A DNA stretch of 64,000 bases from Escherichia phage NHEP1. The stretch lies in sequence record PQ511146.1. One strand, 5' to 3'. The translations under genes were made by a program, and so were the position numbers. The notes beneath the pieces were generated by a model, which was given only the letters and a program-made list of their open reading frames with translations, did not search any database and was not told the DNA's origin. Of the stretch, positions 20,764 to 38,007 are shown one piece after another; the first letter of the stretch is position 1, and each line of letters begins with the position of its first letter.

Positions 20764-23270
20764 CACACAAGTCTGCTTTGCAGGTTTAGCTGCTCAGCTA
20801 AGGTTCTGGAGGCACCTATAACATCTTCCAACTAAATTTCCTACCAACACAGTTACTTACCTACCACACATGACTGTTTGCTTGTTTAGTGAGCAGTCAT
20901 CACTTGACATTCTTGCCTATCTTGATAAAATTAAGTTCTTCTCTTTTCTTTTACCGAGTAATTCGGGTTTTCTGTTCTCTTCGGTTTGAAGGGGTATGGA
21001 GATACACCTGAGTGAACAGGGTGAACAACCGAACCTTTAGCTATGGCATTAGCATGGCGAAGCGGACGGGTGACGAAAGAGGGGCCGGAGGACACCAGTC
21101 ACTGCCATATAGTATATGGGTGATAACCTGAAGAGTCTGAATAAGTGTTTAAGTACCAGTCAGAGGAAAAGGTGAATGGTAGCCGAAGGGGGAGGGGGGT
21201 TTCTTATATCTTTAATTTGTATACTTTATATACACTTGTAAACCAATTCAATTAGAATCTGTTTACCACACAAAGGGGATGGAGACAAATATCACCTATT
21301 AAACTTGAATTATTTATAGAAAATACCACAACACCCGTTAAGTCTTTGATTTTACACACAAATCTTACAAATATCCTACCTCCACATTTAACATACTTGT
21401 AACATATTCCATATCCTACCTGCCTGATCAATTTACTCCATCACATTCCCACATTTTCCCTGTCTGTACTACCCCACCCCCGCCGGGAGTCCCGTCATAT
21501 CTGGCTTTCCAGCAAATATCACACCAACAAATATCATCACCTGAAGAGGGTTTCATCCCATAATACCTGCCTTACCTGAAGAGCGCTTCATACACCACGT
21601 AAATTTTTTAATTGACCCCTCCCCGCCGCCAGAGAGGTTGGCTTTTCCCACACAGGCCTGAAGAGTCAGCCAGAAATATCTGAACAGGCAGTTATGTCCC
21701 GATTTTGTGCTTGTCCTACAGGAGTGCTGCCAGGCGGACGGAATGGGAATACTTCTCATTCTTATAATAATTCTCAAATATCGAGGCAGTGAGGCAAATT
21801 AATAGGCCAGGCCGTTCACACAGTGGCACAACATTTGCAATCTATCTTGTGTGGATGAATGAGAATACCTATCATTGTGAGAATGGTTATCATTACGGGC
21901 AATTTAACATAATACCCATTATGCGCACCACTGGCGATACATACAGGGATTGATAACATGGGTTACTGTTTACGCATATAACAATTATATTTCTTACTAT
22001 TTGTGTGGGATATAGTTAGCAACCAATAGATTAGATATTGACCTGCAGACTTCTGACCGTCCAGACGTCTAAACGCCCACACAACAAGGATTATACATAC
22101 ACTCCTGCATGTAACCAGGGCCGCAAAAATGCTACCATACCAGTTTGTAAATTTTTCATGCAGCACTTGACAAAGAGGAGAAAAACTTGTCTGACACAAT
22201 GTGACAATTTTGTCACTTTTGACACTTTTACCTTTGACACAATATGACACAATAACGGCTGTTACTATTCCATATCTCACTGTTTACGCCTGAATAGTTT
22301 ACGCAAAAACTGTTTACACAGAGATGATAAGCCATGCCATTCGTTTGCATGAAAACAATTAACAAGATAACAATTGACAAGCTAACAGCCAACAAGCTGA
22401 CAGTTAATAAGTTAATAAGTTATGACATAATATAAAAGCAGGGCAACTATTAGAAGATCTATAGTTGCCTTGCTTGTTATGTCATGATTAACTAAATACA
22501 AGGCAACTATGATCTGAATAATAGATTGCAGACAAACTATCACGGGGGTGATTGTTACTGCTTTTATATTATGTCGCGACTCCGTCGCGCCATGCCATTC
22601 GTTTGCATAGTTGCCTTATTGTTACAGGTAAAACAATTACATTATTAATTATTTCTTATCTTTCTCTTAGTCATCTAATGATTCCAGTCAGTATAGTAAT
22701 GTACAGTAAACATTAGACGACTAAATATTTCTCTGTGTATAATAACTTATCGTGACAATTTCGAACTGTTTACGAAAAATGTTGACACCTGAGCTGATTT
22801 ATGTTATGCAGTTTACACGAATAATTATTTTATGCAGGTATTGACTATTCCGTTATTCTGTGGTTGGAATAAATACTTTGCAGACTATAGAATGGCGTGC
22901 GTACGTGAATTCTGAGATCTGGCGGCTATAGTTATACTCGATTTTTCGCGTAGAACACGCTTTCGATGCTGTGTAAGTGTATGACTTATAAAGATTTTTA
23001 GTTGTTGACAAGATATTGGAGATGTGCATCAGGTTAAAATTTGTGCAATAGCGGCATTACGTGCACTTTTGGGAGAGAAAACGGGTAAAAATGGCCCTGC
23101 TACCACACAATGAAAGATTATGCAATAGTTATTTTCCATGTATATTTGTACAGTATGTGGGATTGATGGCTAGTCAATTATTCCACTTGCCAGGTAGGGC
23201 CGTTTATGGTAGGAGAAGAGCAGACAAAAAGAAAGGGGCCTTTAAGCCCCTTGATAATTCAGTTAAGAAA
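20764..23270. repeat. ORF-poor, repeat-dense non-coding zone at the convergence of plus and minus transcription blocks
   Basis: No convincing ORF of 100 aa or more; at least five short repeat families seen (see findings). Confidence 0.6.
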
Positions 23271-23690
23271 TTATAATGATTCGTATATTTCAAAAATCCG
23301 ATTTGCCAGGTCGTTACGGTAGCGGAATTTTTCATCGCGCTTGATCATTAAATCCTTATAGCCGTACTCTTTAAGCACTTCATTAACTTTATAGCGGCAT
23401 ACCTGCATATTATCTTGAGCGTCACCAATAAACTTGTTGCTGTGGTGCATTGCTTTAATTTCTTCTTCCAGGACCAGGGCAACTACCCGGACCGGATCAA
23501 GCTGATAGGCGGTAACATCTATGCGGCATTGTAGACGGCTTTTAACGTCTGCCACCGGATATACTGCAACCTCTTCCCCGTCAACATTGACAATAATTAG
23601 TTTACCATCGATTTCGAATCCTTTCGCCGCCGGACCGTGACAAAAAGCGTTATCAAAGCTATATGCCGGATTATCAGATTTAATGTTCAT
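23271..23690 (-). CDS. Hypothetical protein
   Basis: Track ORF 139 aa; ATG with AGAGG RBS. Confidence 0.5.
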   Translation of the reverse strand: MNIKSDNPAYSFDNAFCHGPAAKGFEIDGKLIIVNVDGEEVAVYPVADVKSRLQCRIDVTAYQLDPVRVVALVLEEEIKAMHHSNKFIGDAQDNMQVCRYKVNEVLKEYGYKDLMIKRDEKFRYRNDLANRIFEIYESL

Positions 23691-23834
23691 GGTGTTTTTA
23701 CCTCTTAGTTAATTTTCTTACAACTTCCCTTCAAAAAAGAATATAGCAAAACTGCCGATCCCTGTCAACAAGGGATAGCATAATTTTTATGTGATCAAGG
23801 GGCTTTATCGCCCCTGACCATGCAACCTGTTGTA

Positions 23835-24098
23835 TTATTTGTTGCTCATCCAGTTTTCCCAAGCTGCCTGATAATCTGCCTCACTACGGCGGATCTCTTC
23901 TTGTTCTTCAAGCCGGATCTCTTCTTCCAGGTACCCCAAGATGTCAGCCTTTTTAGTCTGGCGCAACATCCAATCGTCTTTTTTGCGAGTAAAGATCTTG
24001 TACGCTTTCTCGCAAACTTCTTTTTTGCTACCTTTTTGGACTTCAAGAATTCTGTAAGCCATGTACTGAACTAGTTTGAGCTGGTCAAGACGTTTCAT
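23835..24098 (-). CDS. Hypothetical protein
   Basis: Track ORF 87 aa; promoter and hairpin upstream. Confidence 0.45.
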   Translation of the reverse strand: MKRLDQLKLVQYMAYRILEVQKGSKKEVCEKAYKIFTRKKDDWMLRQTKKADILGYLEEEIRLEEQEEIRRSEADYQAAWENWMSNK

Positions 24099-24161
24099 GA
24101 TGTTTTCCTCTTTATGGGGTTCTGGTTTGGTGGGGGCCTTTTGGCCCGTGTCATTATCTTA

Positions 24162-24434
24162 TTACTTACGGCGGCAAAATTCAAGTGTTTTTAATTGATA
24201 ATCTTCCTCAGCCTGGAGTACAACCGCCTCGATCATTTCGTTGGCATTGTTGAAGCCATACCCTTGAGCGAACTCATCCGCGCCACCTTTGTGATCATGT
24301 TCTGCGTTCATCGCTTCCACAAAATGGAATTCAAGATTATTGAGGTAGGGGCTTGATGTTCCGTCCTCTTTTTCGATGAGATCCCAGATAGCGTTAAAAC
24401 GTGATTCGACTTCTTGGTTAATCCAGCTTGACAC
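24162..24434 (-). CDS. Hypothetical protein
   Basis: Track ORF 90 aa. Confidence 0.5.
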   Translation of the reverse strand: MSSWINQEVESRFNAIWDLIEKEDGTSSPYLNNLEFHFVEAMNAEHDHKGGADEFAQGYGFNNANEMIEAVVLQAEEDYQLKTLEFCRRK

Positions 24435-24537
24435 GGCGTTTTCCTCTCTTCTGGTTGTTGTGTGGGCACTTTTGCCCCTTCAAGGTAAATGCTACCCCAC
24501 CACCCGGCAGATGTCAACGGTTTTTATAGTTTTTTAT

Positions 24538-24588
24538 ATGACAGGCACCCCCGGTGATTGTCTCCCCCCGTCGCCAGGTGCCTGCCGT
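24538..24588. repeat. Imperfect hairpin element (copy A), related in inverted orientation to 33699-33880
   Basis: ACAGGCACCCCCGGTGATTGTCTCCC is the exact reverse complement of GGGAGACAATCACCGGGGGTGCCTGT at 33854-33879. Confidence 0.6.
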
Positions 24589-24639
24589 GAAATAAGCATA
24601 ACAAAAAACAGGACAAAAACAAGCCCTGTTTTGTAAAGA

Positions 24640-24843
24640 TTAGATGATCTGCATATCCTCCACGATAATTTCTAATTTCCAAATAAGATGATCTAAGCTC
24701 CCTGATAAAAATGATTCCGATACATAACCGCCATCGGATACCGTAGCAAGGATCTCGCCATTTGCTTGCTCTTTGATTTGAACATCCAGGCGGTTAGCCT
24801 TTGCTTTATTCAGGACGGCGATCAGGCGGTTAGCTGTAGTCAT
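24640..24843 (-). CDS. Hypothetical protein
   Basis: Track ORF 67 aa. Confidence 0.45.
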   Translation of the reverse strand: MTTANRLIAVLNKAKANRLDVQIKEQANGEILATVSDGGYVSESFLSGSLDHLIWKLEIIVEDMQII

Positions 24844-24927
24844 GGTGTTTTCCTTCCAGTTGTGAGCGGCACTATTGCCGCCCTACGTGATACATCTTAC
24901 ACTATCCGGCACATCATGCAAGCTATT

Positions 24928-25119
24928 TTATACTTCCTCACCTATAAAGTCGGATCTATTCTTCTCCGTCATGCGTTTAAGTAGTTCTTGCATGTTGCTG
25001 ATAGCTTGCAATGTATCTTCTTCCAGGCTTGAATCAAGATAATCAGGATCATTCTTCACCTTGCTATGATTGTGATACCGCAACGCTGCTAATACCTTTC
25101 TAACTTGTTCTGCATTCAT
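24928..25119 (-). CDS. Hypothetical protein
   Basis: Track ORF 63 aa. Confidence 0.45.
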   Translation of the reverse strand: MNAEQVRKVLAALRYHNHSKVKNDPDYLDSSLEEDTLQAISNMQELLKRMTEKNRSDFIGEEV

Positions 25120-25131
25120 TTTTATTACTCC

Positions 25132-25344
25132 TTAAAACCAGGTGCCAACCGTTTCCAATAGGTCACTGACTACCAGAACAACACCGATTAGCACATATTT
25201 AATCAGGAAGGGGATTAGCGCCAGCGCCGCTACTATGATCCCCATTGTCATGATTATTTTTCTCATGGTTAACGGTTCACGTAAGTTTTTTTTTCCCATC
25301 TTCTGATCCTCTGTTAGCATACGATAGCGATCACGCCGCCACAA
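25132..25344 (-). CDS. Small membrane protein
   Basis: Two hydrophobic segments. Confidence 0.45.
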   Translation of the reverse strand: MWRRDRYRMLTEDQKMGKKNLREPLTMRKIIMTMGIIVAALALIPFLIKYVLIGVVLVVSDLLETVGTWF

Positions 25345-25577
25345 ATAGAAGGTAAATCAAAACGGTCTAACTTGCAAGCTATTTTTAAACGAAAGGCAAC
25401 ATAAAAGAAAATTTGCAAACAATCGATCATTGTGTTAGCTGTTGAAACGCTGCCAGCATTAAACACCACCCCGCCCACGGCGTTAAACGTTGCGTTACTC
25501 ACGAAAGCGGAAAGGCAAGCGATCACGGTGGCGATCATAATGTTGCGTTTTGTCAATCTGTAGATGATGTTTTTCAT
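25314..25577 (-). CDS. Hypothetical membrane-like protein
   Basis: Start moved to ATG (MKNIIY) downstream of the promoter and GGCGGCAGCATTGCCGCC hairpin that the longer track ORF reads through. Confidence 0.45.
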   Translation of the reverse strand: MKNIIYRLTKRNIMIATVIACLSAFVSNATFNAVGGVVFNAGSVSTANTMIDCLQIFFYVAFRLKIACKLDRFDLPSICGGVIAIVC

Positions 25578-25646
25578 TCTGTCATGTTGGCGGCAGCATT
25601 GCCGCCCTACGAAATACATTCTACCCGATTTGTAATTGTTGTCAAA

Positions 25647-25916
25647 CTAATTTTTCAAGCTCGACCAGTCAAAACACGGCGGGATCTCGTTAAAACTTGT
25701 GCCCTGTAAAGCACATAATTTTTTAGCAATAGCCGCCGTGACCTGGCGCTGTACGCGCGGATCTGCTACTGATTGGAGAAAGTAGGCGGCTTTATACGTG
25801 ATCATGCTTTCGCCTGTTTCCTTGCTAACATGATGCACTATTTTAGCCTTATCATCTTTTACCAGGGTGTAACCGGATTCGATGGCCTTGATTGCAACGT
25901 CCAATGATATTTTCAT
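25647..25916 (-). CDS. Hypothetical protein
   Basis: Track ORF 89 aa. Confidence 0.5.
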   Translation of the reverse strand: MKISLDVAIKAIESGYTLVKDDKAKIVHHVSKETGESMITYKAAYFLQSVADPRVQRQVTAAIAKKLCALQGTSFNEIPPCFDWSSLKN

Positions 25917-25963
25917 GATTTATCTCTTTATTGATGGCGGGGAATACTCCCCCGCCTTATTAA

Positions 25964-26134
25964 TTACTCTTCATCGTCGCCGTTATAGTATTCAATGCCG
26001 TTTTCATCGGTTACGGTAATATTAACGCCACCGATAGCAACACGATCACGGGCAAACGTCATGGCTTCATTTAAATCTTCAGACCAAAAAATATTGTGAC
26101 CTTTGCGCGATACGTAAAACATAGTCGGGATCAT
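25964..26134 (-). CDS. Small ORF (56 aa)
   Basis: Not in track; ATG preceded by promoter plus GC-clamp hairpin cassette; translation MIPTMFYVSRKGHNIFWSEDLNEAMTFARDRVAIGGVNITVTDENGIEYYNGDDEE. Confidence 0.4.
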   Translation of the reverse strand: MIPTMFYVSRKGHNIFWSEDLNEAMTFARDRVAIGGVNITVTDENGIEYYNGDDEE

Positions 26135-26216
26135 GATTTGTTTCTCTTTTGTTGTGAGCGGGAAACCATTTCCCGCCCTATGTGATACATCTTAAACTAA
26201 TTTAAAACGTTGTCAA
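26135..26216 (-). promoter_or_regulatory. Promoter (TTGACA-N16-TAAGAT) followed by GC-clamp 5'UTR stem-loop (PeSL-like cassette)
   Basis: Minus-strand hexamers map to plus 26211-26216 and 26189-26194; hairpin GAGCGGGAAACCATTTCCCGCCC at 26156-26178. Confidence 0.5.
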
Positions 26217-26446
26217 TTATTTTCAAAAAATTTTTCTGCCGTGATATTCTTCCCGGTAGGGTTCGCTACTTTCAAAATTTTATCATGCACTGGACGCCCA
26301 AAAGAATAAGCGCCGTACACAGTGCACCAATAATCGCCGTCAGGCTGTACTATTACCGCCGCATAGGGTACGCCTTTTTCGTTTTTGCTGACAAAATAGA
26401 TCACATTGCCATTAATAGCCTCAGCGCGTTTAATTTGTTCCATCAT
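26213..26446 (-). CDS. Hypothetical protein
   Basis: Track ORF 77 aa. Confidence 0.5.
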   Translation of the reverse strand: MMEQIKRAEAINGNVIYFVSKNEKGVPYAAVIVQPDGDYWCTVYGAYSFGRPVHDKILKVANPTGKNITAEKFFENN

Positions 26447-26509
26447 GATGATTCACCTATCTTTATTTTTTCATAGTTTCAGGAGGGGCCTTTTTCGGCC
26501 CCGCCAGGC

Positions 26510-26794
26510 TTATTTATTGATGGCGTGCAGCGGGAAAGGTACGCCAGGTTGATAGATAACTTTTACAACCTCATCAGGGCAAAAGAAGTTACAAAATTCA
26601 CCCCGATAAGCTTCATCTTCTTTTAATTCTTCATCAACATACTCAAAAAAGTAGTCGATGCTTGGATAATCCTGGCCGGGATTATAGTCAACCATTGTCA
26701 GGACCAGTTCAAGATCGTTGCGTAGGATATGCATACCTGCTTTTAAGTATTTTGCTTCCATTTCTACTACATCGCCAACGGTAACAATAGCCAT
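26510..26794 (-). CDS. Hypothetical protein
   Basis: Track ORF 94 aa. Confidence 0.5.
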   Translation of the reverse strand: MAIVTVGDVVEMEAKYLKAGMHILRNDLELVLTMVDYNPGQDYPSIDYFFEYVDEELKEDEAYRGEFCNFFCPDEVVKVIYQPGVPFPLHAINK

Positions 26795-26998
26795 GGTTTT
26801 AACTCCTATCTATCTGGTTAATGATTGGAGGCCTCACCGCTCCCCCGACACCCTTTATTATCCATATTGTAGGACTTGATGCAAGTACTTCTTTAAAAAT
26901 TTTTAAGCGCCTTGAGGCCGCTGTAACGCCAAAATAATAAAGGCCATGCGGTTGCATAGCCATTAGATGATTATATCGCTGTAGGCCCTGCTGGGGCC

Positions 26999-27349
26999 TT
27001 ATTTTGCATTATTTCCTATATTGCCGCTACGGTACCAGCGTTTACGGTGAAAATGGTAATAATCGCCATCGGCATTAAACATCAGATGGTTTTCAATAAC
27101 CAGCTTACGAAGGTGGGCCGGATCTTGTTCCATTCTTGCCAGATTCTGGCGGCTGTTACGTAAGCGGATAAATTCCATATTCAGGCCGTTGATTGCAGCA
27201 TGGATGTCAAAGTAACCACCTTTGAGACGTTCACGCATGGCGTTAATCTCAACACAATATACAGATTTCTCACAAATCAAGGTATTAGCCAGGGCGCGGA
27301 CCTGGGCAAGGGGGTTAAGCTCATTAAGGTAATATAGTTTTACTTTCAT
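26999..27349 (-). CDS. Hypothetical protein
   Basis: Track ORF 116 aa. Confidence 0.5.
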   Translation of the reverse strand: MKVKLYYLNELNPLAQVRALANTLICEKSVYCVEINAMRERLKGGYFDIHAAINGLNMEFIRLRNSRQNLARMEQDPAHLRKLVIENHLMFNADGDYYHFHRKRWYRSGNIGNNAK

Positions 27350-27366
27350 AAAATAACCTGCTGAAA

Positions 27367-27672
27367 CTAGTTTGAGAAAACATCGTTCACAATAGCGATC
27401 ACAATGCCGTTCACCTTGTCACGGTCAACAATGCACAAATCACCATAGATCATGTGGTAGTCTGGATGATCTTTGACGGAATAGTCAATCAATGTTTTCT
27501 TATCATCCAGCTTACCAACTTCCATTCTCATAACGATATGAGAATCATCAAAGGCATTATTCCGAAAAGTCATAACCTGACCGCCAGGGCACCCAGTGAT
27601 TTCCACCTCCACGCCGTCTACGATCTGACCATCAAAGAAATAAAGATTATTAGCCTGGATAAACATGATCAT
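27367..27672 (-). CDS. Hypothetical protein
   Basis: Track ORF 101 aa. Confidence 0.5.
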   Translation of the reverse strand: MIMFIQANNLYFFDGQIVDGVEVEITGCPGGQVMTFRNNAFDDSHIVMRMEVGKLDDKKTLIDYSVKDHPDYHMIYGDLCIVDRDKVNGIVIAIVNDVFSN

Positions 27673-27716
27673 TACTCCTTTTTTGCACTGATTATTTTAA
27701 CAGGGTTTAAATTTAC

Positions 27717-27756
27717 TTTATTGATGGCCCTGGAATCAAGGCCATCTAAAAATAAA
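27717..27756. repeat. Conserved 40-bp hairpin cassette TTTATTGATGGCCCTG..CAAGGCCATCTAAAAATAAA (copy 1 of 3)
   Basis: Near-identical copies at 31423-31462 and 32045-32084. Confidence 0.6.
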
Positions 27757-27758
27757 TT

Positions 27759-27959
27759 TTACAGGCCTACAATCTCTTTAATTCGTTTTACTGCTGCCTC
27801 AGCGCCTTGAGGGTAAAAATTATGGTAACCAATCACGCGAGTGATACTAATCGCCGTTTGATGATCTTCATAATCACCTTTAAAGATTTCTTGACCGTCA
27901 ATCAGCACGGCAATTTTTTCTTCTTTTTTGAAGTTAATAACGCGGATATTGTTGCTCAT
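27759..27959 (-). CDS. Hypothetical protein
   Basis: Track ORF 66 aa; promoter, GGGGAGCAATCCCC hairpin and AAAGGAG RBS upstream. Confidence 0.5.
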   Translation of the reverse strand: MSNNIRVINFKKEEKIAVLIDGQEIFKGDYEDHQTAISITRVIGYHNFYPQGAEAAVKRIKEIVGL

Positions 27960-28434
27960 TTTGTTTCTCCTTTCTAGTCTTTGTGGTGGGGATTGCTCCC
28001 CGTTGATTGTTATTATCCATATTCCGGACCGGATTGCAACACCCTAGAAGAAAAATTTTTGAAAAAGTTAAGCCCCCAGGGATTGGGGGCCGTTATCAGT
28101 TACTTACAGCGATAAAGTACATCCCTACGCCTAACAATATTTCAAGAGCGATGATCTCAAGCCATACCGTAACACGGCGCACCTTATCGGTGCGGGGCTT
28201 ATCCTTGGGTGTCATCGTCTCCCCCTTTCCTCCTGTTAGCAGTTACGTGGTTTGCAATGGTCCCCAGGAGTATTATCACCACGCACATTACAAGAAAAAT
28301 TATCTCTGTCGTTGTTCGATCCATTGTTATAAAATTCCTTAAGATCAGGCCTGAAAATAAAGCTTTCGTTATTGAATCCATCCCGCCAGGCGGCTGGCTT
28401 CAAATCTTCACTAAATGGATTAATTAACGTGGCA

Positions 28435-28836
28435 TTATTTCGGCTGGCCCACATATTTTCTATTCCTCTTAAATAAGCGATCCGCCTCAGTTAAACAAAT
28501 CTCATGGGCGTGATCTCTGGTTTTAGCTTCATCGAAAACCTGTTGTGCAAGGCTGCAACGTAGGGAGACTGGAAGATCACTATAATAGGCGTTGACAAAC
28601 GTTTGAGCGTCGTACAGGTCTGAAAATACTTTACCCTTTCTATTATTCCCCTTGTCAACAATTGCAAGGATAACCAATACAATAGTTGCAACCACCCCCA
28701 GGAAAATAGATATAATAAACCATAAAAAGGCGGATCTTCCCATCTTGCCAGCGATCCAGGCGTTAAACAAGGCAACCAATACAGCCAAAATAATAAATTC
28801 CATTCTATGTACCTCTTTTACAGTTCTGATTAACAA
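28435..28836 (-). CDS. Membrane protein (two predicted TM segments)
   Basis: Hydrophobic stretches FIILAVLVALFNAWIAG and FLWFIISIFLGVVATIVLVILAIV. Confidence 0.5.
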   Translation of the reverse strand: MLIRTVKEVHRMEFIILAVLVALFNAWIAGKMGRSAFLWFIISIFLGVVATIVLVILAIVDKGNNRKGKVFSDLYDAQTFVNAYYSDLPVSLRCSLAQQVFDEAKTRDHAHEICLTEADRLFKRNRKYVGQPK

Positions 28837-28867
28837 TAAGGCGGCAAATATGCCGCCTGTTACCTGA

Positions 28868-29248
28868 TTAAAAATTATCGCCGTAAATCTTTCCGCTTTC
28901 TACCCATACCACCACGCGAGGCATACTATCCCACACGTCTTGTTTTAGATTGAGCGCGTGCAATTCTTCGGTGGTGCTCATACCAGGCACGGGCTGATTG
29001 TATACTGCAAAACGACCACCCGCATAATCATAGGCCAGGGTTAAATCACACTGGATCATCTTTTTGATCATGGCATTAAGCATGGCGTTAGCCGCATATT
29101 GATCACGTTTTAAAGGCAACTCTTTGATTAGTTTGCGATAGTTTTCGATATGGTCGCACACTGTTTCACGCGGAAGATCTTTCATATCTTCACGGAATGT
29201 GACCAGGTTAAACATAACGGTGTCAATAGCCTTGGTAGTGTTTTTCAT
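28868..29248 (-). CDS. Hypothetical protein
   Basis: Track ORF 126 aa. Confidence 0.5.
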   Translation of the reverse strand: MKNTTKAIDTVMFNLVTFREDMKDLPRETVCDHIENYRKLIKELPLKRDQYAANAMLNAMIKKMIQCDLTLAYDYAGGRFAVYNQPVPGMSTTEELHALNLKQDVWDSMPRVVVWVESGKIYGDNF

Positions 29249-29338
29249 GATGTTATCCTCTTTGTTTTGTGTTGGGGCAAACGTCTTGCCCCCTTGAGTT
29301 TTAATATAGCAGGTTTTTAGGTTATTGCAACACTTTAT

Positions 29339-29962
29339 TTATGAAAAAGTCATCTCACCATATTCATCGACATCAAACCGCCAATCATTGGCCTCGATAA
29401 GGCCGATCAGGTTTTCTGCGGTGAACTGTTCTAGATAGGCCTCCTCCAGGTCTACGTAAACCTTGCGGGATAGCTCCCGTGCCGTCTCGGTGATCAGTTC
29501 TTCCAGGTCTTCCACTTTGTTTTCTTGTTTGGCGGTCAGATCTAGCCAAGTGGTATCAATGTACCCGTTTACAGTGTTTTCATGGCTGTAATGGCTGTAC
29601 TTGTCGCGTTCAATACTGGCGGATAGTTCGCCATCGTGCATTGTGCCGAACAAGTGACGAATTGATCTGAACTTGGTCAGGGCCTTGACTTTACGCAAGA
29701 ATTTTTCTAAGTCTACATTTTCAGCACTGATCGATGCGCCATCGCCTTGACACCAAAAGCCGGACCAATGTACTTCGGTATCTTCAAGGCCGTACTCTGG
29801 AAAGATATATTCTTTGTAGTATTCAATTACATTTTCTGCAAAAAAGTCATCCCCGCTGCGTTCTTCTCTTTCGCGTACCATTTCAATGGCTTTTTCTTTT
29901 TGTTCGTCGGTCAGCACGTCGAAAGATAAATTGTAACCTGTGGTAATGTTAACGGTGGTCAT
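29339..29962 (-). CDS. Hypothetical protein
   Basis: Track ORF 207 aa; preceded by promoter and hairpin cassette. Confidence 0.55.
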   Translation of the reverse strand: MTTVNITTGYNLSFDVLTDEQKEKAIEMVREREERSGDDFFAENVIEYYKEYIFPEYGLEDTEVHWSGFWCQGDGASISAENVDLEKFLRKVKALTKFRSIRHLFGTMHDGELSASIERDKYSHYSHENTVNGYIDTTWLDLTAKQENKVEDLEELITETARELSRKVYVDLEEAYLEQFTAENLIGLIEANDWRFDVDEYGEMTFS

Positions 29963-30048
29963 GATATTTTCTCCTGTTTTCTTTGTTAGTGGCGGGAAGT
30001 TTTCCCGCCTGCGTGTTTAATTATACTTATTGGGATTTACTTGTCAAC
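29963..30048 (-). promoter_or_regulatory. Promoter (TTGACA-N16-TATAAT) followed by 5'UTR stem-loop GGCGGGAAGTTTTCCCGCC (PeSL-like cassette)
   Basis: Minus-strand hexamers map to plus 30042-30047 and 30020-30025; hairpin at 29991-30009. Confidence 0.55.
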
Positions 30049-30297
30049 ACTATTTTTTAAATTATTGTGGCGCAAAATGTTTAAAATCTCCTCAACGTCA
30101 TCAACACGGCGGCAATTTTTAAACGCTACCAATTGCCCCATGATTTTAATCACTGGGCGGCCTTGCCAGTGCCCCTGAAGAAAGCGCGCCTTGACTTTAT
30201 CGGTGGAACTATCACGCCACCAAATAGCCTTGTTGTTGCAGTAGTAAAAATTATTCAGGATAACATCAACTTTATCAAAATTTTTTAATTTACGCAT
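30037..30297 (-). CDS. Hypothetical protein
   Basis: Track ORF 86 aa. Confidence 0.5.
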   Translation of the reverse strand: MRKLKNFDKVDVILNNFYYCNNKAIWWRDSSTDKVKARFLQGHWQGRPVIKIMGQLVAFKNCRRVDDVEEILNILRHNNLKNSVDK

Positions 30298-30516
30298 GGC
30301 GTTTACTCCTTTCTCTCTTTGATGTGGTTAGTATAGCTAACCTGTTGACGATGTCAATGATATTTTTAACGCCATAAAACGGCCCTGGGCGATGTTTTCA
30401 GGTTAAAGGGGGGCGATTGCATAGGTGGGGGCCTTTTTGGCACTTACAGGGCCAACCAGGGGCGCTATTCGTAGGATAGAAATAAAAAGCCCCGCACAAT
30501 GGCGGGGCGTTGGTTG

Positions 30517-30738
30517 TTATTTGTCTTTATGGCGGTATCGTTCTGCCTGTCGTTCACGTTCCAAAAGTAGGCAGGGCAATTTACGATCATAATGATTCCG
30601 CCAGATCTTCCCAAACCTTTTTGGCTTATTCAGTTTATTGTTACGCTGTCGGCGTTCTGGCAGCTCTTCGGAATCATGAGGGCGCTTTACAATTTTCTCG
30701 AAATTAATTTTCATATATTCCCCCCTTGCTAACTTCAA
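30517..30738 (-). CDS. Small basic hypothetical protein
   Basis: Track ORF 73 aa, Arg/Lys-rich; chosen over the overlapping plus-strand ORF for strand consistency. Confidence 0.4.
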   Translation of the reverse strand: MKLARGEYMKINFEKIVKRPHDSEELPERRQRNNKLNKPKRFGKIWRNHYDRKLPCLLLERERQAERYRHKDK

Positions 30739-31075
30739 TATTGGCCTGAATGGCCCGGATACGGCGCTTTATAACTTCCTGATCTGTGTGGTCGTATCCC
30801 CAAAAGTCCACAATTTTTGCGCCCCCAGCCTCCAGGCGGTATAGTGTTTCCTGCATTTTGTAAGCCGGGATCGGTCGCGGTGTTACTTGGTCACCTTCTT
30901 TATTTTTATACTTTATAATATAATCTTCGTTATCGTTGAATTCCCAAAATGGATATTCTGCAAGGGCGGTACTTCCTCTTTCCTTTTTATCCTGGATCTT
31001 ATTTACAATTAAAGCCGTAGCAATAGCGCCAATAATAAAACTAGCCCCGCTGATCATGTTACTTTCTCCTTTCAT
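30704..31075 (-). CDS. Hypothetical protein with N-terminal TM segment
   Basis: Track ORF 123 aa. Confidence 0.5.
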   Translation of the reverse strand: MKGESNMISGASFIIGAIATALIVNKIQDKKERGSTALAEYPFWEFNDNEDYIIKYKNKEGDQVTPRPIPAYKMQETLYRLEAGGAKIVDFWGYDHTDQEVIKRRIRAIQANIEVSKGGIYEN

Positions 31076-31131
31076 GGTGTTAATAAATTATCTTTATAGA
31101 TGGCCCTGCAACCAGGACCACCGAAAAATAA

Positions 31132-31377
31132 CTATTTCACAATGCCTACAAAACAGATCCCGCCTTCACCTATGTAAGCAATATCGGTCACTTTGTAGTC
31201 GGTTAAGATCTGTTTATTCAGATCATTAATAAAATCGGTCATTGCGTTGGTGTAGTTGTCTTCTGTATCTAAGGCATAATCCCAGGTGTAAACCTTTTTA
31301 CGTCCGAAGCCTTTTACCATGATACGGGCGCTTTTGGTGTTAGTAGGGGCATAATACTTGGTGATTAGTGCTGCCAT
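31132..31377 (-). CDS. Hypothetical protein
   Basis: Track ORF 81 aa; GAGGAG RBS. Confidence 0.5.
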   Translation of the reverse strand: MAALITKYYAPTNTKSARIMVKGFGRKKVYTWDYALDTEDNYTNAMTDFINDLNKQILTDYKVTDIAYIGEGGICFVGIVK

Positions 31378-31422
31378 GGTTTTAACTCCTCATTAGTTCA
31401 GTGTTAACAGTGTAAAGTTTAC

Positions 31423-31462
31423 TTTATTGATGGCCCTGAAGTCAAGGCCATCTAAAAATAAA
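31423..31462. repeat. Conserved 40-bp hairpin cassette (copy 2) carrying a minus-strand TTGACT -35 in its loop
   Basis: Minus strand reads TTGACT-N18-TAAACT upstream of gene 31132..31377. Confidence 0.55.
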
Positions 31463-31464
31463 TT

Positions 31465-31806
31465 TTACTCGTTTTCTTCCAGCTTTGAAAGCTCTTCTTT
31501 CACTTCTTCAAGCTCTGTCTGCAATTCTTGGTATTCTTCGTCGTCCTCAATATCCAGGCTGTCGATGTAGTCGCTAAATCCGCAGCGGTAAGCGATAGGA
31601 TCTAACTCCTTGAGGATACGCGACGGAAGAAAAGAAATGCTTCCGATCATAATTTCGCCGTAGATCTCGTCTAACCATTCATCATAGTTTTCGTCGTACT
31701 TGTCCTCGTCGATTTCAAAGTTATCGATCTTGTTCTCAAGGTCTGCGATCTGTTTTTTCAGCGCGGCGATCTGCATAGCTTTTTCTGCGGCGGTCATAGT
31801 AGTCAT
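31465..31806 (-). CDS. Acidic coiled-coil-like hypothetical protein
   Basis: Track ORF 113 aa. Confidence 0.5.
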   Translation of the reverse strand: MTTMTAAEKAMQIAALKKQIADLENKIDNFEIDEDKYDENYDEWLDEIYGEIMIGSISFLPSRILKELDPIAYRCGFSDYIDSLDIEDDEEYQELQTELEEVKEELSKLEENE

Positions 31807-32044
31807 GGTGTTTTCTCCTTTTGTGTATTCTGGGAAGTTTTCCCGTTTACGTGTTTAAGTATATCAATCTAAGTTAGCTTGTCAATTAAAAATTTAAGAA
31901 AAATTTTGCAAAACTGTTAGCGCTACTCATTAACATTTGCGCCAGGATGTAACCGACAACGCAAACGATAATAGTTACCTTTGTGTATTGGCGTGTAGTG
32001 CTCATCTTAAAGCCCCCTTTTTCGCTTAGTTGAGACTAGTTTAC

Positions 32045-32084
32045 TTTATTGATGGCCCTGGAGTCAAGGCCATCTAAAAATAAA
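32045..32084. repeat. Conserved 40-bp hairpin cassette (copy 3)
   Basis: Same sequence family as 27717 and 31423. Confidence 0.55.
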
Positions 32085-32085
32085 C

Positions 32086-32490
32086 TTAATAAGTTTTCAG
32101 TACTTTACCGTCCAACCTGTCAAGCTGGATCTCAATAGCTGCAGAAAACCTATTGTACACCACGTCGCCCATGGAATCCAACCAGTCTATGACGTTATAC
32201 ACCTGCTCTTTGTTCTTGCAGGTCCGGATCCGTTTCATGATGTAAGCCGGATCAATATTGGTACTTTCGTTGGTGTTCCCCTGTACCTGATTTGCCGTAT
32301 TAGTTACATCTTTAATGGCCTTTACCACCACCTGGAAGGGCTTTAAGGTGCCTTTTGCGTTCATCTCACGCACTTTTGCGGCGCGGTTGTTATAGGTTAC
32401 ACAACGGCGGCAAATGTTCACTAAGTGCATGTCAATAATTTTTTCATCGTTTGCCAGTTCGTTCATGATGCGGCGTACGTTCTTATTCAT
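32086..32490 (-). CDS. Hypothetical protein
   Basis: Track ORF 134 aa. Confidence 0.5.
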   Translation of the reverse strand: MNKNVRRIMNELANDEKIIDMHLVNICRRCVTYNNRAAKVREMNAKGTLKPFQVVVKAIKDVTNTANQVQGNTNESTNIDPAYIMKRIRTCKNKEQVYNVIDWLDSMGDVVYNRFSAAIEIQLDRLDGKVLKTY

Positions 32491-32566
32491 GATCTTTTTC
32501 CTTTGTGTTGGCGGGAAACATTCCCGCCTTTTGTGATTAGTTTACTTGAATTTTGCAGCGTGTCAA
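32491..32566 (-). promoter_or_regulatory. Promoter (TTGACA-N16-TAAACT) followed by stem-loop GGCGGGAAACATTCCCGCC
   Basis: Minus-strand hexamers map to plus 32561-32566 and 32539-32544; hairpin 32510-32528. Confidence 0.5.
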
Positions 32567-32572
32567 CAATTT

Positions 32573-32971
32573 TTATTCGTGGGCGCATGTTACAATGTGC
32601 TTTTTATAGCCCAGGTGGTTAGCAAGTGCCGACAAAAACTCTTCTTCATAGATCCAGCCGTTGGCAGTGATCCCCATAGCATTTAATGCGCTCTCAAGTG
32701 CTGCATTAGCTTTATCGTAACCGTGACCGCTCGCCTTCCCGCCAGTATAACCGTACTTATTGTTCTTGTTGTCGTGAATCCAAAAAACACAGTATTGAGT
32801 GTTCCCGCTGGCGGCGGCATAATACCGGATCTCAGCTACTTCGTGCAAATTATTGTCATCGTCCAGGCCCACCAGATTATAAGCCTTGTAAAATCCACGA
32901 TCACGGCGGCAGTTCTTGACATCAGAAAAAGAAAAGTCCGCATTATCAAAATTAAAGGTAGTGGTTTTCAT
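32573..32971 (-). CDS. Hypothetical protein
   Basis: Track ORF 132 aa. Confidence 0.5.
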   Translation of the reverse strand: MKTTTFNFDNADFSFSDVKNCRRDRGFYKAYNLVGLDDDNNLHEVAEIRYYAAASGNTQYCVFWIHDNKNNKYGYTGGKASGHGYDKANAALESALNAMGITANGWIYEEEFLSALANHLGYKKHIVTCAHE

Positions 32972-33035
32972 GATTTTATCCTCTTAGTGTCTTTTGTGCT
33001 TTTAGTGTATTTGGTGTCAGAATGTATGTCAATAC

Positions 33036-33233
33036 TTATTTTTTATTAAACCAGTGGTTGATCTGGCCTTTTGTCAGGGCGCAACGATTAAGCTGTTGCC
33101 GGGTGTAGCTCTGACCGCGACGGAATTTATAAAGGCCTTGCCCGTTGTTGATGGTTACGTCCACCTGGCAAATCATTTGATCGGTGACGGCCTGGCGAGT
33201 GTTGCGACGTACTTTAATTCCGTAGGCGTTCAT
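33036..33233 (-). CDS. Hypothetical protein
   Basis: Track ORF 65 aa. Confidence 0.45.
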   Translation of the reverse strand: MNAYGIKVRRNTRQAVTDQMICQVDVTINNGQGLYKFRRGQSYTRQQLNRCALTKGQINHWFNKK

Positions 33234-33633
33234 GATTTTTATCCTCTCTGTTAATTAGTGTGGTGTTGTTCACCTTGCGAGGATAAGAATAACAGAACTA
33301 TCCGAGCTGTCAACCATTAGTTAGAATTATTTTTTGGGCAGAATTCTCCAGCCGCCGCCACTGCCAGGTTAACCATCATTTTTTCGTACTCTTCTTTATG
33401 TTCCAACGCTCCCGCCATAGCCTTTTCAACCAGGGCGATAGCCTCAGCGTCATTAATCGCTACATTTTCCAGGGGGGATCCTATTACCTTTCATTTTTGT
33501 ACCTCTTCTTCAGTTGTTGCCTACCCTGCATAGGCCCACCAGGTTTGCAAGCCTTCATTCTCCCCTACCTGGTCAGTTAGGTCCTGCCAGGCTGGCCCCG
33601 CCAGGTTGCAACGGTTAGCGCATCAGGTTAGAA

Positions 33634-34510
33634 TTTTTTTTTTTTTTGAAAGTGTTGACAGCGGCCCCGCCAGGTGGCACAATATACCTATCGAAAGGAC
33701 GGCAGGCACCGGTGACGGGGGAGACAACCACCGGGGATGGGCGCTGCATAAAATGAGAACGGTTATCATTATCATTTAAAAATTTATGCAAAAAATCCTT
33801 GCTCTCTTTGTCCTGTGTGATACTATAATAACAAGCCGGGGCAACAGGGGCCGGGAGACAATCACCGGGGGTGCCTGTTATTCTGCAAACGAGAATGATT
33901 ATCATTCAAAATTCTAAATGAGAACTTCTCGCATTTCATAAATTTAATTAGCATGCTAATTACCTACCGTGACAATTCTATATAAAATAATACCTCCTTA
34001 AGTATTTCCATATACAAATTTTAAAAATCCATTTCCGAAAACGAAAAATCGCTTTCGTTCCCAAAAATTTCAGGTCGAGCGCCGGAACGATTTCCAGAAA
34101 ATCTGATTCAGAAAACGAAAAACAGATCGAGTACTGAGAAATTTATCGAGAAAAATTTTCAGAAAATTCAATCTTTGAAATGAAAAACAGATCGAGTACT
34201 GAGAGAGATGTGCCTAAACTTCCTGATAATGATGGGCTTATTGTTATAAAAGGCCAGAAGTAAGTTGGGAAAGTTCTGGTAGATGGGTGAGAGTGTGTGC
34301 GGAAAATCTGGAACGGTGATTTGAAGTACGGTGCGAATGATAGAATGAGTAGCGCAGCTTATCGTGCCTGTCTTGAAAAAATCCATTTTAGTTTTCGATC
34401 CATTTTCTGATTTTCTAAGAATTTTAAAATATCCGACTAGGTAAAATATCAAAAGGAGGAAATCTATTTTAGAAACCCTCCTTATACTTGATGTGCCAGG
34501 GATTTTCAAG
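33634..34510. repeat. Repeat-dense non-coding hub: T14 tract, split hairpin element (copy B), direct repeats, 18-bp perfect palindrome
   Basis: T-run 33634-33647; GGGAGACAAYCACCGGGG twice; TAATTAGCATGCTAATTA at 33945-33962; GAAAAACAGATCGAGTACTGAGA twice. Confidence 0.55.
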
Positions 34511-34512
34511 TA

Positions 34513-34842
34513 TCAACTATCTTTGTTTTTAGGCTTGTACATGCGTAGAGGTATAGTTTTTATAACACTCCATCTCCCCAGCCCTTCCCAGTTCCAGTTG
34601 TGGGCATGGTACCCGGTTATGCATGCACTGCTGGCGTGATCATAAGCATAAGAGAACGCTATGCGTAACAAACGAGGCCAGTCTTTCCATGGTTGTGGTC
34701 CGTAAGCTTTTCTCCAACACCGACACAAACTAAATGTCTCAAGAATAGGCAGGATAACAAATCCATACACCGCCACCAGAATGGTCAGCGCAATGATTGT
34801 CAGGAATACATACCCTGCAGTTGAAATAATGATCTCTGTCAT
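34513..34842 (-). CDS. Hypothetical protein with N-terminal TM segment
   Basis: Track ORF 109 aa. Confidence 0.45.
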   Translation of the reverse strand: MTEIIISTAGYVFLTIIALTILVAVYGFVILPILETFSLCRCWRKAYGPQPWKDWPRLLRIAFSYAYDHASSACITGYHAHNWNWEGLGRWSVIKTIPLRMYKPKNKDS

Positions 34843-35042
34843 TTGTCATCCCCTTTCTTACGGATATAGATGTGAGAGCCTGCTTGTACATAAATTTCCC
34901 GACCATCTTCTGCAAAGATGTGGAATACACGGTCACCTTCGTATTCAATACGAGATATCTTCATAACGGTCTTCCCACCCGGAATGCGGATCTCATCGCC
35001 TACAGCAATGTTCCATGCAGATTTAAGCTTAAACATCGTCAC
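34839..35042 (-). CDS. Hypothetical protein
   Basis: Track ORF 67 aa. Confidence 0.45.
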   Translation of the reverse strand: MTMFKLKSAWNIAVGDEIRIPGGKTVMKISRIEYEGDRVFHIFAEDGREIYVQAGSHIYIRKKGDDK

Positions 35043-35274
35043 CCTCCTTTGGGAACTTGAACTCTGGCATAGCCATATACGCTACAACAGGGTTGTGATC
35101 AAAGTAGAACTGACCATTAATTATCCCAGTTTTTTGCACATAGTCACCAGATCCTGCAAGAACAACCTCGCAAGCTCCGAAATCTACATTGCCATTCTCG
35201 TCAGCCATGGCTACGATATACTTTCCGAGAGGCATGTTTTTAACGCCGTCTACAAATGTCCACCCTTTGTTCAT
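35029..35274 (-). CDS. Hypothetical protein
   Basis: Track ORF 81 aa. Confidence 0.45.
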   Translation of the reverse strand: MNKGWTFVDGVKNMPLGKYIVAMADENGNVDFGACEVVLAGSGDYVQKTGIINGQFYFDHNPVVAYMAMPEFKFPKEGDDV

Positions 35275-35294
35275 ACTTTATCTCCTGCACTTTC

Positions 35295-35627
35295 TTAAGG
35301 TAACCAGTAAACAATCTCGCCTTTCAGTTCCATACCATTACCTACATAAATTTGCCAGCCATCCATCTTAGCTGCTGCAGGAGTAAAATCTTCAGAGCCT
35401 CTAACCTCTTTCCATGAGCCATAGTCTGGCTGCCAGATATAAAATCCACCTTCTTTGTCCCATGCGCAATACACCACGTTCAACCAGTTACCCATTGCAA
35501 CAATGGTGGGCCGTGGGAATAATACATCTACAGATGCGCAGCAATATCGGGTATCTTTTAAATTGCAATCCCAAAAGATGTCTGCCAGTGTGGCGGCGAT
35601 AGCTTTACGTCTTTCTAATGTTACCAT
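35295..35627 (-). CDS. Hypothetical protein
   Basis: Track ORF 110 aa. Confidence 0.5.
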   Translation of the reverse strand: MVTLERRKAIAATLADIFWDCNLKDTRYCCASVDVLFPRPTIVAMGNWLNVVYCAWDKEGGFYIWQPDYGSWKEVRGSEDFTPAAAKMDGWQIYVGNGMELKGEIVYWLP

Positions 35628-35637
35628 GGTACGATAC

Positions 35638-35829
35638 TCACTTGTTGTTAAGAAGTTCTAAAACTTTCTGTTTTACTTTATCAAGATCTGTTGATTCAAA
35701 AACTGTGCGATATCCCCAACTTTGCCCATAGGAATGACTGCAATCACCGTAACACCATTGCTCAACCTGATAGTATTCAAGGAATGGGTGCTGTCTAACT
35801 ATGATACCGTCTCGATTAAAAATTACCAT
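35638..35829 (-). CDS. Hypothetical protein
   Basis: Track ORF 63 aa. Confidence 0.45.
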   Translation of the reverse strand: MVIFNRDGIIVRQHPFLEYYQVEQWCYGDCSHSYGQSWGYRTVFESTDLDKVKQKVLELLNNK

Positions 35830-35892
35830 AATTTATCCCTCTCTGCTAGTTTATGTTTATATTATATACCGCAGTTTTCAGATGTCAACCTT

Positions 35893-36144: not shown

Positions 36145-36338
36145 GGGAACACTTTGATGATTGAATCTTCACTCGGCTCGGAAGTTCTTTTTCCGTAGGG
36201 CAGGTAGAAATACCCTCCTGCAGATTCAAACATGGCTCCTTCTGTTGTATCTATCACAGCTAGAATTAAGATTTTAGTCTCCATAGTGCTCCCCTGTCTT
36301 AATCGTTGTGGTGACTATACCACCTTAAAATATAGCTG

Positions 36339-37988: not shown

Positions 37989-38007
37989 TTTTCAGTCCTC
38001 TCTATAC

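Follow-up and report, generated by a model that had tools for sequence, protein, structure and literature searches.

Promoter-hairpin cassettes in the small-gene block of an rV5-like Escherichia phage: candidate expression units that may double as recombination seams

We analysed a 64,000-nt stretch of DNA from Escherichia phage NHEP1 (sequence record PQ511146.1; hereafter, the window), focusing on the region 23691–32566. There, an earlier note, written by a model that read only the letters and a list of open reading frames (ORFs), had described recurring minus-strand cassettes made of a promoter, a GC-rich hairpin and a ribosome-binding site. The genes of the window lie on the plus strand up to ~22.7 kb and on the minus strand from ~61.4 kb down to 22.8 kb, and the cassettes occupy the distal end of this leftward unit, a run of ~35 small genes, the ten largest proteins of which matched no Pfam family above the curated cut-off. 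The region matched 278 phage records, with best covers of 82–88% at 91–95% identity, and all the matches were rV5-like coliphages of the genus Vequintavirus (among them FV3, slur16, YN3, EdH4 and rV5). By sequence similarity, the source phage is an rV5-like Vequintavirus and not a T4-type phage. We compared the region with that of 14 relatives and two IMG/VR contigs, which together with the window made 17 sequence sets. The whole analysis is based on sequence comparison, and the transcription start sites referred to below are predictions from promoter geometry.

Nine spacers of the minus strand between 24.4 and 32.6 kb showed one common architecture, which we call class A (Table 1): the stop codon of the upstream gene, an AT-rich tract (e.g., AAAAATTG, AAATTTTTAA or AAAATAG), a −35 box, a −10 box, a GC hairpin, a leader, a Shine-Dalgarno (SD) sequence and the start codon. 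Their promoters consist of TTGACA or TTGCAA and TAnnnT separated by 16–17 nt and score 9–12 of 12; the stop codon of the upstream gene falls between 10 nt inside and 9 nt before the −35 box, unless a terminator intervenes. The six spacers quoted by the earlier note are all present on the minus strand and are valid members, but its list had missed A29330, A28039 and A24517, as well as a second family of elements (class B, see below). The promoters that it proposed were supported as predictions. On the minus strand from 22800 to 38000 we counted 16 sigma70-like sites with a score of 10 of 12 or higher, against 3.0 ± 1.7 expected from 200 dinucleotide shuffles (a five-fold enrichment), and 8 with a score of 11 of 12 or higher, against 0.29. 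Promoter orientation also followed that of the genes, with 17 sites on the plus strand and 1 in the wrong orientation in the plus-strand block, and 16 on the minus strand and 1 wrong in the minus-strand block. Orthologous sites in rV5 are P164, P168, P185, P186, P192, P194, P195 and P195A (Table S4 of PMC3606486 and GenBank features). The rV5 paper (Kropinski et al. 2013, PMC3606486, Table S4) had already predicted those promoters, and also terminators, which it listed separately; it is silent on promoter-proximal hairpins, class B repeats and any link to gene shuffling.

The GC hairpin occupies an almost fixed place in these spacers. It starts 10, 13, 10, 10, 10, 10, 11, 10 and 11 nt after the −10 box in the nine cassettes, that is, at exactly 10 nt in six of them. 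Stems have 5–10 bp, with the G-rich arm first, and loops 3–5 nt. The stem is preceded by a discriminator of ~10 nt rich in CAC and followed by a leader composed of 62% A, 21% C and 5% T; in eight of the nine cassettes the SD and an ATG or GTG follow the stem within 14–32 nt (A25645 has a poor SD), and the seven spacers that contain no terminator measure 69–90 nt. Six of the hairpins are strong, with predicted energies of −12.5 to −15.8 kcal/mol and z scores of −3.2 to −5.1 versus shuffled sequences. Since such a helix at that offset occurred in only 0.4% of background 40-nt windows, finding it at 6 or more of 16 promoters has a binomial P of 3 × 10−11. Among the six examples of the earlier note, A31885 has a weak hairpin, and the stem type that it gave (GGCGGG..CCCGCC) is found, as GGCGGGAA/TTCCCGCC, in three hairpins only. 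A31885 retains just a GGGAA/TTCCC core, and the remaining class A stems differ (GGCGGCA, GGGGCAA, GGGGA and GGGCA). One additional spacer, 26795–26880, had no significant hairpin (z +0.6) and is not a member of the class. None of the plus-strand promoters reached a hairpin of −12.5 kcal/mol. Two of them, at 14458 and 14946, are followed 9 nt after the −10 box by moderate hairpins of −9.9 and −10.5 kcal/mol, and the promoter plus 5' hairpin design may be present in a weaker form outside the block.

Class A is a family by architecture, with sequence sub-families. In MAFFT alignments the two promoter boxes, the discriminator and the leader fell into register, at column identities of 52% (alignment A1) and 59% (A4), and an unsupervised repeat search retrieved the sub-families D2 (24.9, 25.6 and 26.2 kb) and D7 (30.0 and 31.9 kb), the latter making A31885 a paralogue of A30047. 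The expectation that the cassettes would align as a family therefore held for these parts, but there is no single consensus structure: RNAalifold found no consensus pairs in a 17-sequence MAFFT alignment of class A, because the stems lie in two registers one column apart. We judged class A from per-sequence folds and a position-specific background test. An Rfam scan of 20–42 kb at a permissive threshold gave only a chance-level match to the SurC sRNA (27647–27759, plus strand; 30.5 bits versus a gathering score of 80, E 0.023), which overlaps a class B element.

Class B comprises four palindromic copies of ~61 nt on the minus strand. A 10-bp stem (GATGGCCTTG/CAGGGCCATC) encloses a −35-like TTGACT, forming a 10-4-10 palindrome centred on the −35, with a TAAACT 18 nt further downstream. 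Pairing between the flanks, U-rich on the 5' side and A-rich on the 3' side, extends the stem into a ~20-bp helix with an internal loop, and the complete elements fold at −24 to −25 kcal/mol (z −4.2 to −7.5). Three canonical copies are 87–100% identical over the 61 nt; the fourth is only 69% identical to the reference copy and keeps the extended hairpin through G-U, U-G and C-G replacements in the stem. The copy at 32038–32098 is positioned between genes 32086–32490 and 31886–32005. The nine class A and four class B copies are packed into 8.2 kb, and the block also contains three GC hairpins without a promoter, one of which (25936–25956) sits in a 47-nt spacer ahead of gene 25647–25916.

How these hairpins relate to terminators can be appreciated within the same block, where six T-tract terminator-like hairpins have 6–8 T in the 10 nt after the stem and four of them correspond to the rV5 terminators t164, t177, t181 and t184. 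By contrast, class A stems are followed by 0–1 T, and a terminator scan of the sense strand called none of them. Class B elements, which have no T-tract after the stem on either strand, and the promoter-less hairpins likewise lack this mark of an intrinsic terminator on the sense strand. An antisense terminator role was considered and rejected, a good plus-strand T-tract being found at A32566 only. The genes behind the promoter-less hairpins have no promoter of their own, so that transcription must read through those hairpins, and a terminator role would be self-defeating in class A, where the cassette's own promoter transcribes the stem. Moreover, the near-constant phasing of 10–13 nt to the −10 box would be expected only if the function of the hairpin were tied to the start site. 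The most plausible reading of the hairpin, given its fixed phasing, its missing U-tract and the read-through that must occur, is an RNA element at the 5' end, and the class A hairpin would not be an efficient terminator.

It might nevertheless be argued that the cassettes are true promoter-terminator composites of the kind known as promoter early stem-loops (PeSLs), to which the earlier note had likened them. The hairpin would then stop or attenuate upstream transcription, leaving each small gene under its own promoter alone, and its placement in the cassette's own 5' untranslated region (5'UTR) would be incidental. This is a rather unlikely explanation in our opinion, even if a good deal of the context is PeSL-like: a stop codon and an AT-rich tract, TTGACA, stems of a G-run and a C-run, a CA-rich leader, spacers of 64–90 nt and genes of unknown function. 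The authors of the RB49 study reported that a PeSL stem-loop lacking a clear U-tract strongly blocked lacZ, cutting its downstream expression as much as rrnB T1 (PMC2839356), and the GenBank record of EdH4 labels two of the hairpins as putative terminators. In addition, the predicted start of class B is downstream of its hairpin, so that the hairpin would be transcribed only from upstream, which fits a terminator or 3'-end role, and it recalls promoter-coupled terminators, in which the stem-loop DNA supplies the −35. However, besides the scarcity of T after class A stems and their absence from the terminator calls, a hairpin downstream of a promoter would attenuate the cassette's own transcript too, and termination does not need a fixed offset of ~10 nt from the −10 box. 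Strong termination at the promoter-less hairpins would silence genes that have no other promoter and, in RB49, the hairpin lies within the promoter, not after it.

Alternatively, the hairpins could be recognition sites for a phage or host protein, such as a translational repressor or activator, or boxB- or put-like antitermination signals loaded at each promoter, with class B acting as the operator of a dimeric repressor over the −35 or as an RNase III site such as those found between T7 early genes. Their fixed location just past the predicted start site is that of nut and put sites, and the 5' arm opens with a G-run (GGCGG, GGGC or GGGG) in nearly all stems; the high identity of the canonical class B copies, with the palindrome on the −35, would suit an operator, and their ~20-bp helix with an internal loop belongs to the size class of T7 RNase III sites. 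Still, we consider this possibility improbable, since the loops are not conserved (AAC, TGT, TGG, ATGC, ATAG, GACGT, GCAA, AAAG) and are even inverted between orthologues, the stem sequences vary among paralogues, there is no boxA-like motif and no Rfam family was matched except for the chance-level hit. The divergent class B copy pairs via G-U wobbles, which favours an RNA structure over a DNA operator, and the short class A stems are below the size required by RNase III. The lambda nut and HK022 put sites were rejected as specific models (no boxA, unconserved loops, a single short stem).

The comparison of the 17 sequence sets revealed 28 hairpin variants of ~12 stem types at the same position, with G-U replacements within stems among relatives, so that the fold persists although its sequence changes. 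The A28039 stem, for instance, reads GGGGA/TCCCC or GGGGAG/CTCCCC depending on the relative. At 29274–29292 and 32510–32528, orthologues show inversion of the loop with conservation of the stem: GACGT became ACGTC in FV3 and YN3, where the A29330 hairpin is reverse-complemented, and TGT became ACA in slur16 and in L012. These inversions point to a flip-flop of small palindromes, a sign of hairpin or template-switch events at the DNA level. Together with the chimeric hairpins described below, such DNA-level activity might suggest that the hairpins have no expression function at all, being recombination-prone or selfish palindromes like REP or MITE, or simply chance matches to a consensus; some promoters do without a hairpin and some orthologues tolerate broken stems. 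This is very unlikely, as the statistics for both the positioned hairpins and the promoters far exceed chance and we observed neither terminal inverted repeats nor target duplications. Besides, it is invariably the sense strand that carries the G-rich arm, the distances to the −10 box and the SD are constant, and a selfish palindrome would keep neither.

Gene content around the cassettes differs extensively among relatives, with homology breakpoints at 26210/26211, 25659/25660, 26140/26141, 24927/24928 and 30350–30358. At the first of them, which is the −35 edge of A26216, homology with most relatives ends. Between genes 26213–26446 and 24162–24434 (24.4–26.4 kb), gene order is combinatorial among 12 genomes, and a same cassette type precedes the genes that we label x45, x26 or x30 depending on the phage. 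Three relatives carry chimeric cassettes with the crossover in or beside the hairpin, evidence of the type on which the definition of PeSLs was based (PMC2839356). In FV3, the cassette after 26213–26446 is identical to A26216 of the window through GGGCGG and then continues with another stem half, leader and gene; in nimi, the 5' half of A25645 is joined to the same 3' half as in the FV3 cassette and drives another gene; in YN3, a third promoter is joined to the 3' half of A25645. The modular shuffling of small genes proposed in the earlier note is supported by these breakpoints and chimeric cassettes. Entire modules have also come and gone. Only the window, slur16 and contig L013 carry A24924 with its gene; in the others both were deleted or replaced. 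Magaca lacks ~620 bp containing two genes and A31885, and a single chimeric class B element replaces the two of the window (32038–32098 and 31416–31476) that acted as deletion partners. S127 BCL3 has a 282-bp gene insertion at 30330–30357, flanked by a direct repeat of TTGACAT (the −35 of promoter 30357); a recent move of gene 25964–26134 into this place was rejected, the two proteins being only distantly related. In rV5 and magaca, an extra gene just downstream of 24134–24147 is flanked by a 19-nt repeat of leader and SD. Finally, a 545-bp gene module (23252–23796), which includes promoter 23768 and is bounded by two similar GGGGC..GCCCCTT hairpins, is absent from four relatives. All these junctions indicate that the cassettes are recombination junctions where genes were swapped, lost and gained.

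As a separate observation in this region, a 55-aa ORF (25132–25300, minus strand) resembles an in-frame fusion after the loss of x30, x26 and x27. The relatives examined carry these three genes between the membrane-protein gene 25314–25577 and the 55-aa ORF (phiWec193 without x30), and the old junction TAACCATG persists inside the ORF. A pattern scan of IMG/VR for the GGCGGGAA-type cassette returned two contigs only, both rV5-like in the matched part. In a Seunavirus-like Salmonella phage, the 41-kb locus around the homologue of 38051–39277 had another gene order and no class A cassette, and the small-gene block was not located in it.

The explanation that we favour, with a probability of roughly 0.55, is that the cassettes are self-contained expression units for small accessory genes, presumably early ones, in which the hairpin is a 5'-terminal element of RNA stability and insulation, and that they double as recombination seams. 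The host sigma70 RNA polymerase would start transcription ~7 nt after the −10 box, so that the transcript would begin with 2–5 unpaired bases (compared with ~0–4 for known stabilisers), followed by the GC hairpin, an unstructured A/C-rich leader and the SD. Placed at the 5' terminus, such a stem-loop would impede the RppH and RNase E decay that depends on access to the 5' end, and would insulate the ribosome site from upstream sequence. In read-through RNA, class A and promoter-less hairpins could act as intercistronic barriers to exonucleases. Cassettes share 60–90 nt, from the stop codon and AT-rich tract through the −35, −10, discriminator and G-rich/C-rich stem to the leader, and so also provide the sole homology between genes that are unrelated in other respects. 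By recombining with one another, they would move, delete or swap modules and leave gene expression intact; class B palindromes, which overlap a weaker promoter, would recombine likewise. Recombination may be a selected function of the cassettes or a by-product of their similarity. A stronger version, in which they constitute a dedicated exchange system, that is, preferred substrates of phage recombination or template switching that move single-gene modules, possibly as mini-circles, and are shared across phage families, seems doubtful to us, although such a common currency would explain the near-identical small genes of rV5-like and RB49-like phages.

Several points weigh against the favoured explanation. 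Two class A hairpins, 31832–31844 (z −1.3) and 24464–24477 (z −1.65), are weak, and stem-breaking substitutions occur among orthologues at A30047 (SophiaRose, A6-1) and A32566 (JLBYU08). Promoters 30357, 23768, 33032, 33313, 35888 and 36342 belong to the same transcription unit but have no strong hairpin (that of 33313 is merely a 4-bp helix of −4.5), hence the hairpin is no general requirement for expression. The 5'-terminal position of the hairpins derives from promoter geometry only: we found no start-site, half-life or termination measurement for any rV5-like phage, and no transcriptome or start-site map for any Vequintavirus, in the literature searched. The RB49 lacZ result implies that a missing T-tract does not exclude attenuation. 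As for recombination, breakpoints that leave genes intact must fall in spacers, most of which bear cassettes, so that co-location alone is weak evidence and only the chimeric junctions are diagnostic of recombination at cassettes. Furthermore, at least two events took place without a cassette, an insertion or deletion of gene 26999–27349 and the in-frame x30–x27 deletion in the window.

Table 1. Promoter cassettes, palindromic elements, other hairpins and terminators of the small-gene block (positions in the window; energies in kcal/mol)
Feature	Positions	Strand	Sequence elements	Energy	z	Remarks
A32566	32491–32566	−	−35 TTGACA 32566–32561; −10 TAAACT 32544–32539; ATG 32490
A32566 hairpin	32510–32528	−	GGCGGGAATGTTTCCCGCC	−14.6	−4.8	A/C-rich leader, SD; rV5 P194
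A31885	31807–31885	−	TTGACA-16-TATACT; ATG 31806			rV5 P192
A31885 hairpin	31832–31844	−	GGGAAAACTTCCC	−5.6	−1.3	not significant
A30047	29963–30047	−	TTGACA-16-TATAAT (12 of 12); ATG 29962			rV5 P185; −35 within end of upstream gene
A30047 hairpin	29991–30009	−	GGCGGGAAAACTTCCCGCC	−14.6	−4.2
A29330	29249–29330	−	TTGCAA-16-TATATT with TG; ATG 29248
A29330 hairpin	29274–29292	−	GGGGCAAGACGTTTGCCCC	−12.5	−3.2
A28039	27960–28039	−	TTGCAA-16-GATAAT; ATG 27959			preceded by terminator 28071–28091
A28039 hairpin	27988–28001	−	GGGGAGCAATCCCC	−9.4	−2.45
A26216	26135–26216	−	TTGACA-16-TAAGAT; ATG 26134
A26216 hairpin	26156–26178	−	GGGCGGGAAATGGTTTCCCGCTC	−15.8	−5.1
A25645	25578–25645	−	TTGACA-16-TAGAAT; start probably ATG 25577			poor SD
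A25645 hairpin	25589–25606	−	GGCGGCAATGCTGCCGCC	−15.2	−3.2
A24924	24844–24927	−	TTGCAT (or CTTGCA)-17-TAAGAT with TG; ATG 24843			repeat D2
A24924 hairpin	24862–24883	−	GGGCGGCAATAGTGCCGCTC	−14.9	−3.3
A24517	24435–24517	−	TTGACA-17-TAGCAT; GTG 24434			rV5 P168
A24517 hairpin	24464–24477	−	GGGCAAAAGTGCCC	−9.0	−1.65	weak
Promoter without hairpin	30330–30357	−	TTGACA-16-TATACT			rV5 P186
Promoter without downstream hairpin	23740–23768	−	TTGACA-17-TATATT			rV5 P164
Class B	32038–32098	−	AT-rich arm, stem, A-rich arm ending TAAACT	−25.1	−5.9
Class B	31416–31476	−		−25.1	−7.5	upstream of gene 31132–31377
Class B, divergent	31086–31146	−		−24.6	−4.7	69% to reference copy
Class B	27710–27770	−		−23.8	−4.2	upstream of gene 27367–27672
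Hairpin without promoter	26485–26502	−	GGGGCCGAAAAAGGCCCC	−18.9	−2.7	before gene 26213–26446
Hairpin without promoter	25936–25956	−	GGCGGGGGAGTATTCCCCGCC	−17.4	−4.0	no T-tract after stem
Hairpin without promoter	24134–24147	−	GGGCCAAAAGGCCC	−10.6	−2.2	before gene 23835–24098
Canonical intrinsic terminator	30489–30508	−				6–8 T in 10 nt after stem
Terminator-like hairpin	28839–28858					6–8 T
Terminator-like hairpin	28071–28091					6–8 T
Terminator-like hairpin	26942–26961					6–8 T
Terminator-like hairpin	24605–24632					6–8 T
Terminator-like hairpin	23233–23252					6–8 T

No paper in the literature that we searched describes these cassettes in rV5-like phages. The earlier predictions for rV5 covered promoters and terminators, but not the hairpins next to the promoters, the class B elements or the link with gene shuffling. 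Regulatory cassettes serving as recombination seams have been described only for T4-like phages and, if our reading is true, they would extend to the Vequintavirinae, which are widely isolated for therapy and biocontrol. Given the other placement of the hairpin, the seam principle would also be independent of one particular architecture, any repeated and conserved expression signal being able to serve. In practical terms, these hairpins should not be annotated as terminators, as one GenBank record does, and gene content at 24.4–26.4 kb can be expected to vary between phages otherwise 90–95% identical. For engineering, the cassettes would offer ready units of 70–90 bp (promoter, 5' hairpin, leader and ribosome site) and natural insertion points in rV5-like phages. 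The work opens no long-standing question.

We made several other observations in the window and in the records compared. About 20 records of 'Campylobacter phages' (C2, C5, C9, A13b and others) are 90–97% identical to rV5-like coliphages across the region; they are likely to be coliphages that were mislabelled or isolated together with the Campylobacter phages. In GenBank, EdH4 and YN3 have records that start at the equivalent of window position 21733, in the convergent gap between the plus- and minus-strand blocks. This shared start may reflect a physical end of the genome or simply the convention by which the records were annotated. A 63-aa gene (35621–35853, minus strand), which closely follows the perfect promoter 35888, is common to the T4-like phage RB49: its rV5 counterpart ORF205 is 90% identical to RB49p260, and the window DNA is 82.8% identical to that of RB49 over 221 nt, ending near the gene borders. 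This similarity indicates a fairly recent transfer between two unrelated phage families. The transfer could not be tied to a cassette, since what immediately precedes the RB49 homologue is a gap of 23 nt and no PeSL. The ~1 kb at 33500–34520 has no convincing gene and contains direct repeats at 34024–34204 (D4, D8), a run of 14 A/T at ~33630–33645 and two copies of the GC-rich CCCCGGTG(A/G)TTGTCTCCC. It is possibly an origin or genome-end region; one stretch of the rV5 map was likewise marked 'non-coding' by its authors. A 29-nt GC-rich sequence at 24538–24566, after terminator 24605–24632, is complementary at 97% to 33853–33881, which lies in the non-coding stretch at a distance of 9.3 kb, and at 91% to 33717–33739, such that inverted copies bracket the small-gene block. 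Lastly, jumbo phages of unrelated lineages (121Q, RaK2, Munch and others) carry homologues, 43–61% identical, of the 207-aa protein encoded at 29339–29962 (minus strand). The protein is named a YeeU-like antitoxin in one GenBank record, but a Pfam search with it found nothing.

Different aspects of these elements recall known systems. T7 early genes are separated by RNase III processing hairpins, and intercistronic stabilisers of the REP type are also known. The elements described here are similarly intercistronic hairpins in a presumably polycistronic early transcript, and class B has a ~20-bp helix with an internal loop, but the two show no similarity in sequence, and RNase III would need longer stems than those of class A. 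The transcript of phage T7 gene 10 starts with a stem-loop in its leader. Stem-loops at the 5' terminus stabilise E. coli mRNAs such as ompA and papA, a geometry that protects them from 5'-end-dependent decay by RNase E and RppH (Emory 1992, Bouvet and Belasco 1992, Arnold 1998, Bricker 1999; refs 92–95 of PMC3997798). Class A cassettes share with these mRNAs a stable hairpin a few nt from the (here predicted) 5' end, an unstructured leader and a strong ribosome site, and differ from them in that the arrangement recurs at about nine neighbouring promoters and doubles as recombination homology. In promoter-coupled terminators (Fletcher et al., bioRxiv 10.64898/2026.08.19.745784), the DNA of the stem-loop that closes one unit doubles as the −35 of the next promoter, and the −10 comes directly after a spacer made of a T-tract. 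The class B stem-loop DNA also carries a −35 (TTGACT), but its stem is followed by AATAAAG instead of a T-tract and its U-rich and A-rich arms pair, whereas in class A the order is reversed, with the promoter first.

The closest parallel comes from the PeSLs of the T4-like phages RB49/phi1, PST/T4 and nt-1/KVP40 (Arbiol et al. 2010, PMC2839356; Comeau et al. 2014, PMC4122927). Besides an AT-rich tract and a sigma70 early promoter, they have a stem-loop and, at their 3' end, an SD and an ATG; the stem-loop, a proposed terminator, sits between the −35 and −10 boxes, overlaps the −10 box or immediately precedes the promoter, and PeSL recombinants and, for RB49, encapsidated mini-circles have been reported (PMC2839356, PMC4122927). 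In PST and nt-1 the hairpin is upstream of the promoter (PMC4122927), and in the RB49 spacers that we read directly, wherever a promoter had a close GC hairpin, the stem lay between −35 and −10 or across the −10 (e.g., TTGACAggggatcaccgatccccTATACT). The class A hairpin lies instead 10–13 nt downstream of the −10 box, in the predicted 5'UTR, and class B, whose stem encloses the −35, is only a near-match to the PeSL placement. The host lineage is also different, Vequintavirinae and not Straboviridae, and the elements are known here from their sequence. In architecture, therefore, the likeness to PeSLs drawn by the earlier note does not hold for the position of the hairpin. It does hold for the near-consensus sigma70 promoter, the AT-rich tract starting at the upstream stop codon, the G-run/C-run stem and the CA-rich leader, SD and ATG, all within 64–90 nt, and for the many similar copies clustered among small genes whose function is unknown. 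Above all, it holds for behaviour, with insertions, deletions and replacements between close relatives, such as the 620-bp deletion of magaca, and chimeras that cross in or beside the stem-loop.

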